Shown here piece after piece: positions 19,140 through 54,470 of a stretch of DNA of 64,000 bases. Every line of letters begins with the position of its first letter. The stretch's first letter is position 1. The notes beneath the pieces are model-generated. The model worked only from the letters and a program-made list of their open reading frames with translations. It did not search any database and had not been told where the DNA came from. Made by a program: the position numbers and the translations under genes. This DNA is from Escherichia coli. GTDB lineage: Bacteria; Pseudomonadota; Gammaproteobacteria; Enterobacterales; Enterobacteriaceae. The stretch lies in assembly GCF_003991155.1 (NCBI RefSeq), contig NZ_CP031293.1; one strand, 5' to 3'.

Positions 19140-19811
19140 GTGGATAAGGTTTTAGATTCAGCCCTCCTTTCTTCGGCAAATAAAAGAAAGGGTATCCTTG
19201 CTATTGGCGCACATCCTGACGATATAGAATTAGGCTGTGGCGCATCGCTTGCTCGTCTTGCGCAAAAAGGAATTTATATCGCAGCCGTGGTGATGACTAC
19301 CGGCAACTCTGGCACAGATGGAATAATCGATCGCCATGAAGAATCGCGCAACGCCCTAAAGATATTAGGGTGCCACCAAACTATTCATCTTAATTTTGCT
19401 GACACCCGCGCTCATTTACAGCTCAATGATATGATTTCCGCCCTGGAAGACATCATTAAAAATCAAATTCCGTCTGATGTAGAAATCATTCGTGTATACA
19501 CCATGCATGATGCTGACCGCCATCAGGATCATCTTGCAGTCTATCAAGCCTCAATGGTTGCCTGCCGAACTATTCCACAAATTCTCGGCTACGAAACCCC
19601 AAGTACCTGGCTTTCATTTATGCCTCAGGTTTTTGAATCCGTTAAAGAAGAATATTTCACAGTCAAACTTGCTGCATTAAAAAAACATAAAAGCCAGGAA
19701 CGACGCGATTATATGCGTCATGATCGCCTGCGTGCAGTTGCACAATTTCGCGGGCAACAGGTCAATAGCGATCTGGGTGAAGGCTTTGTAATTCATAAAA
19801 TGATTCTTTGA
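19140..19811 (+). CDS. yaiS: PIG-L/LmbE-family N-acetylglucosaminyl deacetylase-like protein
   Basis: 223 aa from GTG 19140; N-terminal ILAIGAHPDDIELGCG (PIG-L signature region); TATAAT at 19112-19117 and GGAG at 19127-19130 upstream; no signal peptide. Confidence 0.8.
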   Translation: MDKVLDSALLSSANKRKGILAIGAHPDDIELGCGASLARLAQKGIYIAAVVMTTGNSGTDGIIDRHEESRNALKILGCHQTIHLNFADTRAHLQLNDMISALEDIIKNQIPSDVEIIRVYTMHDADRHQDHLAVYQASMVACRTIPQILGYETPSTWLSFMPQVFESVKEEYFTVKLAALKKHKSQERRDYMRHDRLRAVAQFRGQQVNSDLGEGFVIHKMIL

Positions 19812-46930: not shown

Positions 46931-47018
46931 GTAGGCATAATAAGACGCGGTAAACGTCGCATCAGGCATCGGCGCATGGTGTCGGATGCGCCAGGCGACG
47001 CATCCGACAATAACCTAC
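46931..47018. repeat. BIME between codB and prpE
   Basis: gtaggcataataagacgcggtaaacgtcgcatcaggcat ... gtcggatgcgccaggcgacgcatccgac. Confidence 0.7.
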
Positions 47019-48901
47019 TCTTCCATCGCCTGGCGGATCTGATCCAACGACGCTGGATCATCAATGGTCGTCAGATCTCCAGGATCGCGTCCTTCGCAAA
47101 TCGCCTGGATCGTGCGGCGCAGCATTTTTCCGGATCGCGTTTTTGGCAATTGCGAGACAAACCAGACGTGCGCCGGGCGGCCAAAGTTGCCAATCTGGCT
47201 GTCCACCAGCGCCATAATCGCCTTCTCTTGCGAATGCGCCACCTCACGATCTTCCAGACTGTCGCTCTCTTTCGGAATGACAAACGCCACCGCCACCTGC
47301 CCTTTCAGCGCATCTTTCACCCCAACCACCGCCACTTCGGCAACGCCCGGATGACTGGAGATACTCTCTTCAATCTCGCGCGTCCCCAGCCGATGCCCGG
47401 CAACGTTAATTACATCGTCAGTGCGCCCGAGAATAAAGTGATAACCGTCAACGTCACGGATGCCCCAGTCAAAGGTGGCGTACACCGGGCGGGAAAACAG
47501 CGACCAGTACGTCTTCACAAAGCGGTCGTCGTCGCCCCAGATGGTCTGAATACACCCCGGCGGCAGCGGCCCTTCCACCACCAGCATCCCTTTCTCGTTG
47601 ACGCCACACGGTTCGCCGGTGACTTCATTAAGCAACTGCACGTTATAGCCATACATCGGCACGCCGGGGCTTCCCAGACGCGTCTGCCTGTCGTCCAGAC
47701 CGCGAGCAATCGCCATAATCGGCCAGCCGGATTCGGTCTGCCAGTAGTTGTCGATGACCGGCACATCCAGCGTATTGCTCACCCAACTGGCGGTCGGCTC
47801 GTCCAGCGGTTCTCCAGCCAGATAGAGCACTTCCAGCGACGAGAGATCGTGTTTGCGAATTTCAGCGGTAGGGAATTTTTTCAGCACGCGAATGGCGGTC
47901 GGCGCTGAGAACATCCGGCTAACCTGATATTTCTCGACGATTTTCCACCACACACCGCAGTCCGGCCAGATCGGTAATCCTTCGTAAACGATAGTCGCCA
48001 TCCCCGCCAGCAGCGGCGCGTAGACGATATACGAATGCCCCACCACCCAGCCGATATCCGAAGCACAAAAGAACACACCGCCCGCTTTGCCGCCAAAAAT
48101 GGTGTCCATCGAGGTCGCCAGCGCCACCGCATATCCGCCGACGTCACGCTGCACGCCTTTAGGTTTGCCGGTCGTGCCGGAGGTGTAGAGAATGCAGGAG
48201 GTTTCGTTGGATTCCAGCCACGCTACCGGCACCCGCGCGCCGATGTGTTGATGGCGCAATGACGCGAAATCGACATCCCGCCCGCTGACGCGCGCCATTT
48301 TCGCCAGCCCGCGATCCACCAGCAAAACGTGGCGCGGCTGATGCTGCGCCTGACTTATCGCATCGTCGAGCAATTTTTTATAAGGAATGATTTTGCCACC
48401 GCGCGCTCCGGCATCTGCCGAGACAATCAGCACCGGTTTAGCGTCATCAATCCGCGCCGCCACGCTGTGCGAGGCAAATCCACCAAACACCACCGAGTGA
48501 ATAGCGCCAATGCGCGCGCAGGCCAGCAGAGTAATATGCGCTTCGGCAATCATCGGCATATACACCAGCACCCGATCGCCACGCTGCACGCCCAGTGAGC
48601 GCAGCATTGACGCCACTGCGTTCACTTCGTCATGCAGCTGACGAAAGGTAAAGGTGCGCTCTTCTTCTGTTTCCGAAGAGACGGCAATCAGCGCCAGCGC
48701 CTCTGGCTGTTTCTCCAGCCAGCGGTCGATAGCGTTGTGACACAAGTTGGTTCGGCCTTCACAAAACCAACGGGCAAACGGCGGATTGCTGTGATCAAGC
48801 GTTTGCGTAAAGGGCGTCTGCCAGTCAATACGCCGGGCCTGCTCGGCCCAGAACTTCTCCGGTTCGTTAATCGAACGCTGATAAAATTCGCTAAAAGACA
48901 T
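47015..48901 (-). CDS. prpE: Propionyl-CoA synthetase
   Basis: 628 aa MSFSEFYQRSINEPEKFWAEQARRIDWQTPF...; AMP-forming acyl-CoA synthetase. Confidence 0.95.
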   Translation of the reverse strand: MSFSEFYQRSINEPEKFWAEQARRIDWQTPFTQTLDHSNPPFARWFCEGRTNLCHNAIDRWLEKQPEALALIAVSSETEEERTFTFRQLHDEVNAVASMLRSLGVQRGDRVLVYMPMIAEAHITLLACARIGAIHSVVFGGFASHSVAARIDDAKPVLIVSADAGARGGKIIPYKKLLDDAISQAQHQPRHVLLVDRGLAKMARVSGRDVDFASLRHQHIGARVPVAWLESNETSCILYTSGTTGKPKGVQRDVGGYAVALATSMDTIFGGKAGGVFFCASDIGWVVGHSYIVYAPLLAGMATIVYEGLPIWPDCGVWWKIVEKYQVSRMFSAPTAIRVLKKFPTAEIRKHDLSSLEVLYLAGEPLDEPTASWVSNTLDVPVIDNYWQTESGWPIMAIARGLDDRQTRLGSPGVPMYGYNVQLLNEVTGEPCGVNEKGMLVVEGPLPPGCIQTIWGDDDRFVKTYWSLFSRPVYATFDWGIRDVDGYHFILGRTDDVINVAGHRLGTREIEESISSHPGVAEVAVVGVKDALKGQVAVAFVIPKESDSLEDREVAHSQEKAIMALVDSQIGNFGRPAHVWFVSQLPKTRSGKMLRRTIQAICEGRDPGDLTTIDDPASLDQIRQAMEE

Positions 48902-48940: not shown

Positions 48941-50392
48941 TTAAATGACGTACAGGTCGAGATACTCATTGACCGGCATCTGTTCCAGGCGAGTTCTGTC
49001 GAGAGAAACCTCCAGAATGCGCTGCTGTTGGCGAGTCGGGAACTGGCGCGCGAGATTGATTTTGAATTTATCGACCAGCTTCGGAATTCCATCCTGACGG
49101 CGGCGAGCATGACCAATGGGGTACTCCACCACCACTTCTTCAAAGCGCGTGCCGTCGGTGAACTCAAGGGTTATGGCATTGGCGATGGCGCGTTTTTCCG
49201 GGTCGTGGTAGTCAGCGGTAAACGCCGGATCTTCAAAGCAATTGATCTTCTCGCGCAGGGCGTCGATGCGTTTATCTTGCGCAACGTTGTCCTCGTAATC
49301 TGCCGCCGTTAAGCGCCCGAACAGCAGCGGGATCGCCACCATGTACTGAATGCAGTGGTCGCGGTCAGCCGGGTTATTGAGCGGCCCTTTTTTGTCGATG
49401 ATGCGAATACAGGCTTCGTGGGTGCGAATGGTCACTTTTTCGATATCCGCCGCCGTTTTGCCTGCTGCCTGCATCTGTTCATAGAGCGTCATCGCCGCTT
49501 CAACTGCCGCCTGGGAGTGGAACTCCGCCGGGAAGGAGATTTTGAACAGCACATTTTCCATGACGTAGGAACCGTACGGACGCTGGAAGCGGAATGACTC
49601 ACCTTTAAAGGAGACGTCGTAGAAACCCCACACCGGCGCGGTCAGGGCTGACGGGTAACCCATTTCGCCCGTTTTCGCCATCAGCGCCAGACGTACCGCG
49701 CGGGATGTAGCATCGCCCGCCGCCCAGGATTTACGCGTGCCGGTGTTCGGCGCATGGCGGTAGGTGCGCAGCGACTGTCCGTCTACCCATGCCAGCGAAA
49801 CGGCGTTGAGGATTTCATCACGGGTCAGGCCAAGCATTTCGGCGACCACGGCGGTGGAAGCCACTTTCACTAACAGAACGTGGTCAAGGCCGACGCGATT
49901 AAAGGAGTTTTCCAGCGCGATGCAGCCCTGAATTTCATGGGCTTTAATCATTGCGGTCAGCACCTGTTTCATGGTCAACGGGGCTTTGCCGCTGGCGACC
50001 GCGTTGCGTGAAAGCCAGTCTGCCGTTGCCAAAATACCGCCGAGGTTGTCGGAAGGATGCCCCCACTCCGCCGCCAGCCAGGTATCGTTGAAATCGAGCC
50101 AACGGATCATCGCGCCGATGTTAAATGCCGCCTGGACGGGGTCGAGCTGGAACTGAGTTCCGGGGACGCGCACGCCGTTAGGTACGACGGTGCCGGGGAC
50201 AATTGGCCCCAGCAGTTTTTTACAGGCTGGGTATTCGAGAGCTTCAAGACCGCAGCCGAGCGTGTCGAGCAGGCAGTAATGTGCGGTGTCGTAGGCTACT
50301 CTGGAGCTGATTTCGTAGTTCATCACGTAATCGACGATATCAACGATTTCACGATCAAATTCCGGGCGGATGTTGTTGATTTGAGCTGACAT
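48941..50392 (-). CDS. prpD: 2-methylcitrate dehydratase
   Basis: 483 aa [30 protein letters not shown]... Confidence 0.95.
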
Positions 50393-50425: not shown

Positions 50426-51595
50426 TTACTGGCGCTTATCCAGCGCGACAAACGGGCGGTCTTCCGGTCCAACATAATTGGCGGAAGGACGGATAATTTT
50501 GTTGTCCTGACGTTGTTCGATAATGTGCGCCGCCCAGCCGGTGACGCGGGCGATAACAAACAGTGGTGTGAACATCTCGGTGGGAACGCCCATCATGTTG
50601 TAGGAAACAGCGGAGAACCAGTCGAGATTGGGGAACATCTTTTTGCTCTCCCACATCACCGTTTCCAGGCGATCGGCGATGTTGTACATCTTCAGCGAAC
50701 CGCCTTCCTGCGAGAGCTGCTTCGCCACGCGTTTGATCACCTGATGACGCGGGTCAGCGATGGTATAAACCGGATGTCCAAAACCAATCACCACTTCTTT
50801 GTTTTCCACGCGCTTGCGGATATCGGCTTCGGCTTCGTCCGGCGTTTCGTAGCGTTGCTGGATCTCCAGCGACACTTCATTCGCCCCGCCGTGCTTCGGC
50901 CCGCGCAGTGCACCAATCGCGCCAATAATGGCGGAATACATATCAGAGCCGGTGCCCGCAATCACCCGGCTGGTAAAGGTGGAGGCGTTAAACTCGTGTT
51001 CGGCGTACAGCACCAGCGAAATATGCATCGCCTTTTCCCAGCTTTGCGACGGCTTTTCGCCATGCAGCAGATGCAGGAAGTGACCGCCGATGGAGTCGTC
51101 ATCGGTTTCCGGCTGAATGCGTTCGCCGTTGTGGCTGTAGTGATACCAGTAGAGAAGAATCGAGCTAAGTGACGCCAGCAGTTTGTCGGCAATATCCCGC
51201 GCACCAGATACAGTGTGCCCCTCTTTTTCCGGCAGTGTGCAGCCGAGCGCGGAAACGCCGGTGCGCATAACATCCATCGGGTGTGACGCCGCCGGTAAGG
51301 CTTCCAGCACGGTACGCACGTTAGCCGGTAAACCACGCAGGGCTTTCAGTTTCGTTTTGTAAGCGGCGAGTTCGTCACGGGTTGGCAGTTTGCCGTGGAT
51401 CAGCAGGTGCGCCACTTCTTCAAATTCACAATGTTCCGCCAGATCAAGAATATCGTAGCCACGGTAATGCAGGTCGTTGCCGCTTTTACCCACGGTGCAG
51501 AGCGCCGTATTGCCCGCCGGAACGCCGGAAAGTGCCACCGATTTTTTCGGTTTAATGACATGGGTACTGTTTTGCAGGATCGTTGTGTCGCTCAT
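50426..51595 (-). CDS. prpC: 2-methylcitrate synthase
   Basis: 389 aa; citrate synthase family. Confidence 0.95.
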
Positions 51596-51635
51596 ATTGT
51601 CCTCGTCATTGTTATCATTTGTAGGGTCGAGATTG

Positions 51636-51726
51636 TTGTCGGATGCGACGCTATGCGTCTTATCCGACCTACAGTTCAGTTCACCTCGTAGGCCTGATAA
51701 GTCGCGTCAGCGGCGCATCAGGCATC
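51636..51726. repeat. BIME in prpB-prpC intergenic region
   Basis: ttgtcggatgcgacgctatgcgtcttatccgacctac ... gtaggcctgataagtcgcgtcagcggcgcatcaggcat. Confidence 0.75.
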
Positions 51727-51754
51727 GGTTGTCGAATACAACCAACGGGCGTTT

Positions 51755-52645
51755 TTATTTCACCTGACCACGGGCAAACAGGTCGTCGAGCTTCTCTTCG
51801 TACTGGTAGTAGTTGATGCTTTCGTACAGCTCGTTGCGGGTCTGCATGGTGTCGATGACGCTTTTCTGCGTGCCTTCCTGACGCAGGACGTTGTAGACAT
51901 GTTCAGCGGCGCGGTTCATGGCACGGAACGCTGAAAGCGGGTACAGCGCCATTGCGACATGGGCGCTGCGTAATTCGTCGGTGGTAAACAGCGGTGTTGC
52001 GCCAAATTCGGTGATGTTGGCGAGGATCGGCACCTGCACCGCATCGGCAAACTGGCGGTACATGGCGAGTTCGGTAATCGCCTCCGGGAACAACATCTCG
52101 GCACCCGCTTCAACATAGGCCTGCGCGCGCTCGATCGCGGCGTCCAGCCCCTCTACCGCCAGCGCATCGGTGCGCGCCATGATCACAAAATCAGGATCGG
52201 TTTTCGCATCCACCGCCGCGCGGATCCGATCCACCATCTCCTCTTTCGAGACAATCGCTTTGTTCGGACGATGACCGCAGCGTTTCGCACCAACCTGATC
52301 TTCAATATGCAATCCTGCCGCACCGGCTTTAATCATCGATTTCACGGTGCGCGCCACGTTAAAGGCCGAAGAACCAAAACCGATATCCGCATCCACCAGC
52401 AGCGGCAGCGAACAAACGTCGGTAATACGGCGAATATCTGTCAGCACGTCATCAAGAGTAGAAATACCGAGATCCGGCAGCCCCAGCGACCCTGCCGCCA
52501 CGCCACCGCCGGAAAGATAAATCGCCTGATATCCGGCACGCCGCGCCAGCAGCGCATGGTTAGCGTTGATGGTGCCAACAATCTGCAATGGATTTTCTTT
52601 AGTCAGTGCAGCGCGAAACGCTTTACCTGGAGAGTGTAGAGACAT
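51755..52645 (-). CDS. prpB: 2-methylisocitrate lyase
   Basis: 296 aa [34 protein letters not shown]... Confidence 0.95.
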
Positions 52646-52690
52646 AGCCCATCCTTTGTTATCAACTTGTTATTTGCGTTAATAAACACA

Positions 52691-52708
52691 AAGCAAGGGG
52701 TGTGCCAC
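52691..52708 (-). promoter_or_regulatory. Sigma54 (-24/-12) promoter of prpBCDE
   Basis: Minus strand reads TGGCAC-ACCCC-TTGCT (TGGCAC-N5-TTGCW); about 45-60 bp upstream of prpB ATG; divergent from prpR. Confidence 0.7.
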
Positions 52709-52883
52709 AATTGACTGAATAAAATTAAATGTTTAATTTCAATTTGTTAGAGATAAAGTCATGAAGTAATCCGCAAATATGTGTTTCAGTTAACGTTTCA
52801 GGCAATGTTTCACCGCGTTTCATTGCAACAATTATGAAACAAGGCTAAACCCAATATTCGGTTTCTTAACTTTGCGGTGCGCT

Positions 52884-54470
52884 ATGGCACATCCACCACG
52901 GCTGAATGACGACAAACCGGTTATCTGGACGGTATCGGTGACGCGCCTGTTCGAGCTGTTTCGCGATATCAGCCTCGAGTTTGATCACCTGGCGAACATT
53001 ACCCCTATTCAGCTTGGCTTTGAAAAAGCAGTGACCTATATCCGCAAGAAACTGGCAAACGAACGCTGCGACGCCATCATCGCCGCTGGCTCTAACGGCG
53101 CATATCTTAAAAGCCGCCTGTCAGTGCCAGTTATTTTGATTAAACCGAGCGGCTACGATGTGTTACAGGCACTGGCAAAAGCCGGAAAACTCACCTCTTC
53201 TATCGGCGTTGTCACTTATCAGGAAACTATTCCGGCACTGGTGGCGTTTCAAAAAACCTTTAATTTGCGCCTCGACCAACGTAGCTACATTACCGAAGAA
53301 GACGCGCGCGGGCAGATTAACGAGCTGAAAGCTAACGGCACCGAAGCGGTGGTCGGCGCGGGGCTGATTACCGATCTGGCAGAAGAAGCCGGAATGACCG
53401 GAATTTTTATCTATTCCGCCGCCACCGTGCGCCAGGCATTCAGCGATGCGCTGGATATGACGCGCATGTCGTTACGCCATAACACTCACGATGCCACCCG
53501 CAACGCTCTGCGTACTCGTTACGTGCTGGGCGATATGCTCGGTCAATCACCACAGATGGAACAGGTACGGCAGACTATTTTGCTGTATGCCCGCTCCAGT
53601 GCGGCGGTGTTGATTGAGGGGGAAACGGGGACGGGCAAAGAGCTGGCGGCCCAGGCGATTCATCGGGAATATTTTGCCCGCCACGATGCGCGACAGGGCA
53701 AAAAGTCGCATCCGTTTGTTGCCGTCAACTGCGGGGCGATTGCCGAATCGCTGCTGGAAGCGGAGCTGTTTGGCTATGAGGAAGGAGCGTTTACCGGCTC
53801 GCGACGTGGAGGTCGCGCCGGGCTGTTCGAAATTGCCCACGGCGGTACGCTGTTTCTGGATGAGATTGGCGAAATGCCGCTACCTTTGCAGACTCGCCTG
53901 TTACGGGTGCTGGAAGAAAAAGAGGTCACCCGCGTCGGCGGGCATCAGCCTGTTCCGGTGGATGTGCGAGTCATTAGCGCCACTCACTGCAATCTGGAAG
54001 AAGATATGCGGCAAGGGGAGTTTCGCCGTGATCTGTTTTATCGGCTGAGTATTTTGCGTCTGCAATTGCCACCACTGCGCGAGCGGGTGACGGATATTCT
54101 GCCGCTGGCGGAAAGCTTTTTGAAAGTGTCTCTGGCGGCGCTCTCCGCCCCGTTTTCTGCCGCATTACGCCAGGGGTTACAGGCAAGCGAAACCGTGCTG
54201 GTGCACTACGACTGGCCGGGAAATATTCGTGAACTGCGCAATATGATGGAGCGACTGGCGCTGTTTTTAAGTGTGGAACCGACGCCGGATTTAACGCCGC
54301 AATTTTTGCAGCTGCTACTGCCGGAACTGGCGCGCGAGTCGGCGAAAACTCCCGCTCCACGCTTACTGACACCACAACAGGCACTGGAGAAATTTAAAGG
54401 CGATAAAACAGCAGCGGCGAATTATTTAGGTATCAGCCGGACGACGTTCTGGCGGCGGCTGAAAAGCTGA
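52884..54470 (+). CDS. prpR: Sigma54-dependent activator of prp operon
   Basis: ATG at 52884 gives 528 aa [15 protein letters not shown]...; AAA+ motifs [13 protein letters not shown]; C-terminal HTH. Confidence 0.93.

Follow-up and report, generated by a model that had tools for sequence, protein, structure and literature searches.

Does the spacer between the divergent genes prpR and prpB of this Escherichia coli chromosome carry an intact σ54-dependent switch for the propionate operon, and of which elements would that switch be made? The question concerns 238 bp at positions 52646-52883 of the window, by which we mean the whole stretch of 64,000 nucleotides analysed here; they separate the start codons of prpB (ATG at 52645..52643, minus strand) and prpR (ATG at 52884). 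The identities of the two flanking genes were established with NCBIfam equivalog models and with RefSeq annotation from a genome that is 100% identical. The region is the E. coli chromosomal segment cynR-codBA-prpEDCB / prpR-yahO, annotated in one 100%-identical chromosome in the order cynR, codA, codB, prpE, prpD, prpC, prpB / prpR, yahO, yahN. Among 5,426 complete E. coli genomes, 5,219 matched a 701-bp query spanning the spacer, several chromosomes with 100% identity; the region is absent altogether from about 200 of the 5,426. The genes of the locus are listed below.

52884..54470, plus strand: prpR, 528 aa (NCBIfam NF011953, 1009.7 bits, cut-off 703)
51755..52645, minus strand: prpB, methylisocitrate lyase, 296 aa (NF008455, 560 bits, cut-off 353)
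51596..51754, minus strand: prpB-prpC spacer with a single REP/BIME-type unit, defined by alignment with K-12
50426..51595, minus strand: prpC, 2-methylcitrate synthase, 389 aa (NF009006, 720.7 bits, cut-off 550)
48941..50392, minus strand: prpD, 2-methylcitrate dehydratase, 483 aa (TIGR02330, 923.1 bits, cut-off 458)
47015..48901, minus strand: prpE, propionate--CoA ligase, 628 aa (TIGR02316, 1299.6 bits, cut-off 827.4)

The genes prpB, prpC, prpD and prpE follow one another in this order on a single strand; each is full length and scores above its equivalog cut-off, and all five prp proteins (528, 296, 389, 483 and 628 aa) have the K-12 lengths and match their equivalog models from end to end. 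An earlier reading of the sequence alone had taken the promoter as confirmation that the operon is intact. The operon is indeed intact, but a promoter motif cannot show this: we consider the prp regulon intact because its five open reading frames are full length and score above the cut-offs. The spacer of strain EC32 (NZ_CP085619.1) is intact though its prpR gene is annotated as frameshifted. In another chromosome, NZ_CP144930.1, the spacer match runs only from query position 43 onward and occurs in two places, which suggests a putative disruption near the prpR end of the spacer.

That the gene facing away from the operon encodes a σ54 activator, as had been claimed, is borne out by its position on the opposite strand, its equivalog score and its translation. 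The match to the PrpR equivalog (NF011953 / TIGR02329) covers residues 2-528, and the protein shows the PrpR_N + AAA+ + HTH_8 architecture of this family, with a PrpR_N sensor domain (residues 36-196), an AAA+ σ54-interaction domain (219-393), an AAA lid and a C-terminal Fis-type helix-turn-helix (498-527); the Pfam matches are PF06506, PF00158 (220 bits), PF25601 and PF02954. The Walker A (GETGTGKE) and Walker B (FLDEIGEM) motifs are readily recognised in the translation, as is the σ54-contacting loop EGAFTGS, a variant of GAFTGA.

The spacer, which on the minus strand contains ...CAATTGTGGCACACCCCTTGCTTTGTG..., was then compared with the σ54 consensus, and one element matched without mismatch.

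52707..52692, minus strand: σ54 core promoter TGGCAC-ACCCC-TTGCT (TGGCACACCCCTTGCT), zero-mismatch consensus match, identical to K-12

Its doublets, GG at 52706/52705 (-24) and GC at 52694/52693 (-12), are exactly 10 bp apart and face prpB, and 46 nt separate the end of the motif from the prpB ATG. The sequence-only reading was thus right that the motif lies on the minus strand and is correctly spaced upstream of prpB, in a perfect -24/-12 arrangement and in the orientation of the gene; its coordinates, 52691-52708, were one base too wide on each side, the true limits being 52692-52707. The promoter scan that it had proposed gave an exact consensus match, single in the window: the pattern TGGCACNNNNNTTGCW (TGGCAC-N5-TTGCW) occurs exactly in the 64 kb only at 52707..52692, for an expectation of 0.14 matches per 64 kb on both strands. 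An exact match could in principle arise by chance in intergenic DNA and have no function, and at least one did occur somewhere in 13 of 100 whole-window shuffles. Scaled from the window scan, the chance of a match on the correct strand of a 238-nt spacer is, by contrast, approximately 2.6e-4. Allowing one mismatch yielded a single further site, at 19238, giving a total of 2 against 3.9 expected; the loosened pattern is uninformative because it matches less often than expected. This second sequence, TGGCGCATCGCTTGCT (19238-19253, plus strand), was rejected as a σ54 motif, since it carries one mismatch and its occurrence is within chance (2 against 3.9 expected); it would lie inside a partial PIG-L deacetylase pseudogene near yaiP and tauA if the window is colinear with NZ_CP029747.1. 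A TGGCAC sequence at the prpR start codon (52885-52890, plus strand; repeat I5) is likewise not a σ54 promoter, as no TTGC follows 5 nt on.

The core is also documented in the literature, as had been stated when the region was called known biology. The K-12 17-mer GTGGCACACCCCTTGCT, identical in the window, is published as the σ54 ChIP-seq site OS01 upstream of prpB, with an occupancy 17-fold above threshold (FAT 17) (PMC4591121, Bonocora et al. 2015), and the K-12 prpR/prpB spacer gave an RpoN-holoenzyme peak in genomic SELEX (gSELEX) (PMC8743547). A table of known σ54-dependent promoters includes prpB, for which the motif spans -62..-45 relative to the start codon and expression ratios of 2.2 and -2.8 are given (PMC2831329); position -62 from the prpB ATG is 52707 in the window. 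In Salmonella, expression of prpBCDE was 45-fold higher in the wild type than in an rpoN deletion strain when a promiscuous activator was expressed, and the σ54 ChIP-chip site at prpBCDE is TGGCATAGCCTTTGCTTT (PMC3844500). According to two reviews (PMC5566544, PMC4987338), PrpR, σ54 and IHF are all required and 2-methylcitrate is the co-activator; PMC5566544 cites the ihf requirement as established genetically in Salmonella. The σ54 occupancy of the identical K-12 sequence, the dependence on rpoN, prpR, ihf and CRP, and the co-activator role of 2-methylcitrate are therefore taken here from published work.

To what extent is this arrangement conserved? When a genome collection was scanned with PrpR, full-length PrpR-like matches were obtained at 14 loci. 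In nine of these prpB is divergent, namely in E. albertii, two Citrobacter, two Photorhabdus, two Oxalobacteraceae, one Burkholderiaceae and Xanthomonas massiliensis. The loci L007-L010 and L013, PrpR-like with no prp genes in the DNA examined, were left out of the conservation count, and most of the other 80 loci of the scan were discarded as unrelated σ54 activators matched via a shared AAA+ peptide. All nine divergent loci carry a zero-mismatch TGGCAY-N5-TTGCW motif in the orientation of prpB, 39-49 nt before its start codon, and eight of the nine carry upstream GTTTCA/TGAAAC clusters, the Xanthomonas locus having degenerate copies only. Four Salmonella-like loci were added from metagenome records picked by the published LT2 18-mer, their organism being deduced; since the motif was the basis of their selection, they do not count as independent support for it, but they do inform on the remainder of the spacer.

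An alignment of seven Escherichia, Citrobacter and Salmonella-like sequences retained the upstream inverted repeat UAS1, the TGAAACG...CTGA part of the neighbouring UAS2 (both described below), the σ54 core and the leader with its Shine-Dalgarno sequence as conserved blocks. The stretch between UAS2 and -24 could not be aligned and varied in length. Such conserved blocks flanking a variable stretch are the pattern that would be expected if enhancer and promoter were joined by a flexible looping region. The motif is found at the same prpB distance in every orthologous locus examined, even where the remaining spacer is unalignable, and the identical sequence is bound by σ54 both in vivo and in vitro (PMC4591121, PMC8743547). 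Because of this conservation and of the published occupancy we consider a functionless chance match to be refuted; the probability that we would still grant it is vanishingly small.

A second possibility is that σ54 binds the motif unproductively and that prpBCDE is transcribed mainly from a σ70-type promoter, for instance a CRP-dependent one. In its favour, many E. coli σ54 sites are described as transcriptionally inactive (PMC4591121), and the review PMC5566544 reports CRP dependence of PprpB. In addition, the start of E. coli prpB is a predicted one: EcoCyc gave the promoter as 'predicted' in 2015 (PMC4591121), and our literature search for a mapped prpB start, primer-extension or 5'-end data in E. 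coli found none. Against it, a consensus scan of 52500-53000 detected neither a σ70-type promoter nor a terminator, and the best prpB-strand matches of a lenient σ70 scan were weak (4+4 of 12). Moreover, the position of the σ54 motif relative to prpB is kept in nine of nine gamma- and betaproteobacterial loci, each of which has a PrpR gene next to it, the Salmonella operon is expressed in an rpoN-dependent manner (PMC3844500) and E. coli prpB figures in the table of known σ54 promoters (PMC2831329). Taken together, these data make a σ70-driven operon highly improbable, and the spacer at 52646-52883 is almost certainly the E. coli prpR/prpBCDE control region with a σ54 promoter activated by PrpR.

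CRP itself was considered separately, since the prpB and prpR promoters are both given as CRP-dependent in the two reviews (PMC5566544, PMC4987338). No convincing CRP box was found in the spacer, the best matches having 3 mismatches in 10 positions, which is about chance level; one of these candidates relies on a base specific to the window allele. A CRP site was not assigned in the spacer on account of these chance-level matches, consistent with CRP genomic SELEX, in which neither prpB nor prpR was recovered. No Rfam family was detected at E <= 1 in 52300-53200. On the prpR strand, a substitution relative to K-12 creates TTGACT (52711-52716), a -35-like hexamer with only a weak -10 partner. 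Also on the prpR side, the DNA that separates the prpR start codon from UAS1 holds a near-perfect palindrome, AAACCCAATATTCGGTTT (52847-52864). The palindrome lies in a block that Escherichia and Citrobacter have both conserved, and may be part of the prpR promoter or an operator.

We turn to the sequences through which PrpR would act. Five GTTTCA/TGAAAC hexamers are clustered within 60 bp (at 52783, 52795, 52807, 52817 and 52835), approximately -100 to -160 from the predicted start. No denser cluster exists in the window, which contains 48 such hexamers in total, and the maximum in 500 block shuffles was at most 3. Two groups were distinguished.

52817..52840: UAS1, inverted repeat GTTTCAT-N10-ATGAAAC, centred at about -148 and 44-67 bp upstream of the prpR ATG
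52783..52812, plus strand: UAS2, three direct GTTTCA half-sites (52783, 52795, 52807) at 12-bp spacing, reading TGAAAC in the prpB direction

UAS1 is invariant in the seven Escherichia, Citrobacter and Salmonella-like sequences and in eight Escherichia alleles, and its half-sites are those of the PrpR enhancer consensus derived from Salmonella footprinting, CGTTTCATGAAACG, as listed in Table 1 of the review PMC4987338. It is a probable PrpR enhancer site. The UAS2 hexamers are contained in the same consensus, and UAS2 aligns with the contiguous palindrome CGTTTCATGAAACG of the Salmonella-like and Citrobacter loci, the equivalent position being centred at about -120. The half-site cluster as a whole would represent activator sites placed at the 80-150 bp expected of an enhancer.

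The organisation of UAS2 differs between genera: Salmonella-like (L143, L181) and Citrobacter (L004, L005) loci have the contiguous palindrome, whereas E. coli has three direct TGAAAC copies. In E. coli and E. albertii the copies share one orientation and are approximately one helical turn apart (10-12 bp); three to four such half-sites are present, E. coli having three and E. albertii two exact copies. UAS1 and the 28-bp distance between the centres of the two sites are unchanged. With this direct-repeat form, PrpR may assemble on its enhancer in a different way, which could underlie the report that the E. coli system is roughly 3-fold weaker. It should also be noted that CTGAAACGTTAAC (52794-52806, prpB direction) looks like a Cra (FruR) half-site; a Cra site had earlier been reported in the prpB regulatory region, and a gel shift detected no Cra binding (PMC5829826).

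Between the enhancer and the promoter, where σ54 promoters commonly, though not universally, have an IHF site, one candidate for IHF binding was found in an AT-rich stretch.

52737..52749, plus strand: IHF-like site TTTCAATTTGTTA, differing from WATCAANNNNTTR by one mismatch and located in AT-rich DNA between UAS and promoter, centred at about -62

This placement of IHF is a prediction from the consensus. The stretch at 52737-52749 is poorly conserved and its length differs between genera, and the sole perfect IHF consensus of the spacer lies elsewhere, at 52660-52672, in the leader and downstream of the predicted start.

The leader of prpB was delimited by taking as the predicted start the base 12 nt after the GC at -12, counted from its C, that is 19 bp after the motif centre; the start rule published for K-12 also places it 19 bp downstream of the motif centre and predicts a distance of 36 bp to prpB (PMC4591121). 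The distance from predicted start to prpB obtained here, 36, is exactly the K-12 value.

52646..52681, minus strand: predicted prpB 5' UTR, about 36 nt, with a predicted start at about 52681
52652-52655, minus strand: Shine-Dalgarno sequence AGGA, 6 nt before the prpB ATG
52667-52672 and 52656-52661, minus strand: twin TAACAA motifs, TAACAAGTTGATAACAA, just upstream of the Shine-Dalgarno sequence

The twin TAACAA motifs are kept in Escherichia and Citrobacter, appear as TAACA in the Salmonella-like loci and recur in the Photorhabdus leaders; the perfect IHF core consensus that they enclose is lost in the Salmonella-like loci. They could be an undescribed site of post-transcriptional or DNA-level control. 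Their conservation may reflect no more than selection for an open, A-rich ribosome-binding region, a reading suggested by the lack of structure in the leader, whose RNA folding was not significant (z = 0.73). An inverted repeat, I1, that spans leader and promoter was rejected as an RNA structure, its upstream arm being untranscribed and the folding of the leader not significant. The direct-repeat UAS2 and the twin TAACAA motifs are both unexplained by the literature found on the prp region. That the former reflects a different PrpR assembly and the latter an undescribed control site, the two together, appears to us an unlikely, speculative proposal.

The allele in the window is an uncommon one: at 99% identity or above, its spacer is matched by 54 of 5220 E. 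coli records, most of the others falling at 95-99%. Relative to the K-12 spacer it has the same length and seven substitutions, none of which falls in the core, UAS1 or the half-site hexamers. Two lie just upstream of -24 (about -30 and -33), two between -12 and +1 (about -8 and -2) and one flanks the promoter-proximal TGAAAC. The switch might therefore be intact in its architecture and nevertheless weakened or altered by substitutions near -24, -12 and one UAS2 half-site, a view to which the number of changes and the rarity of the allele lend some weight. To address within-species variation, seven E. coli spacers with 94.5-100% identity were aligned with that of E. albertii. The specified core bases and all half-sites were invariant among the sampled E. 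coli alleles; the sole change inside the E. coli motif was in the N5 spacer (ACCCC to ACCCA), and E. albertii has TGGCAT. As the specified core bases, UAS1 and the half-site hexamers are untouched, as the substituted positions also vary in other E. coli alleles, which suggests that the changes are neutral, and as PrpR and the four enzymes are full length, an impaired allele is very unlikely.

The closest known system is the K-12 prpBCDE promoter (OS01), which serves as PprpB in the pPro expression vectors: it occupies the same locus, in a 238-bp spacer with an identical GTGGCACACCCCTTGCT, and UAS1, the five half-site hexamers, the IHF-like site, the TAACAA motifs, the Shine-Dalgarno sequence, the gene order and the protein lengths are all identical. 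The differences within the spacer are the seven point substitutions, all outside the motifs. Further downstream, the prpB-prpC spacer of K-12 is 439 bp long with four tandem REP/BIME units (L002, 4074-4512), against 159 bp with one unit of about 98 bp in the window, so that REP/BIME copy number varies inside the prpBCDE transcript.

The experimentally characterised system is that of Salmonella enterica LT2 (rpoN, prpR and ihf dependence, 2-methylcitrate, enhancer CGTTTCATGAAACG). The window shares with Salmonella the divergent prpR/prpB arrangement, a σ54 core at the same distance from prpB, the TAACA twin motif of the leader, a nearly identical UAS1 and a 28-bp centre-to-centre distance between UAS1 and UAS2. 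By contrast, the Salmonella core TGGCATAGCCTTTGCT differs from TGGCACACCCCTTGCT at three positions, and the stretch between UAS2 and -24 is about 30 bp longer in the Salmonella-like loci, assigned to that organism by deduction, than in E. coli. The same logic, a -24/-12 promoter with an AAA+ activator encoded next door and enhancer sites upstream, is known from other divergent pairs of activator gene and σ54 target operon in E. coli, norR/norVW and zraSR/zraP. These systems differ from prp in the sensor domain (PrpR_N, for 2-methylcitrate, in PrpR), in the enhancer sequence and in the regulated pathway. The zraP and zraS promoters are among the tabulated σ54 sites (PMC4591121, PMC2831329).

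The mechanism that best explains these data is as follows. RNA polymerase containing σ54 would form a closed complex at the -24/-12 element (52707..52692, minus strand) and be unable to open the DNA unaided. PrpR, encoded divergently, would occupy the GTTTCA/TGAAAC enhancer about 110-150 bp upstream, its N-terminal domain sensing 2-methylcitrate, which PrpE and PrpC would produce from propionate. IHF, bound to the AT-rich DNA that separates enhancer from promoter, would help the DNA to loop, and the AAA+ domain of PrpR would then touch σ54 through its GAFTG(S) loop and use ATP for promoter opening. The transcript would begin at about 52681 and run through prpB-prpC-prpD-prpE. The exact start, the position of IHF and the choice of half-sites by PrpR in E. 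coli are predicted elements of this scheme.

The σ54 switch of prpR/prpBCDE is already-known biology, and its recognition here is correct but ordinary, of little significance beyond annotation. For the strain, it means that a complete and apparently functional propionate (2-methylcitrate cycle) regulon is carried under a canonical σ54/PrpR switch, which bears on growth on short-chain fatty acids of the gut and on the use of PprpB/PrpR as a propionate-inducible expression tool and biosensor. For the region, the comparison across genera provides a clean phylogenetic footprint, in which enhancer, core and leader are kept and the looping stretch is free to vary.
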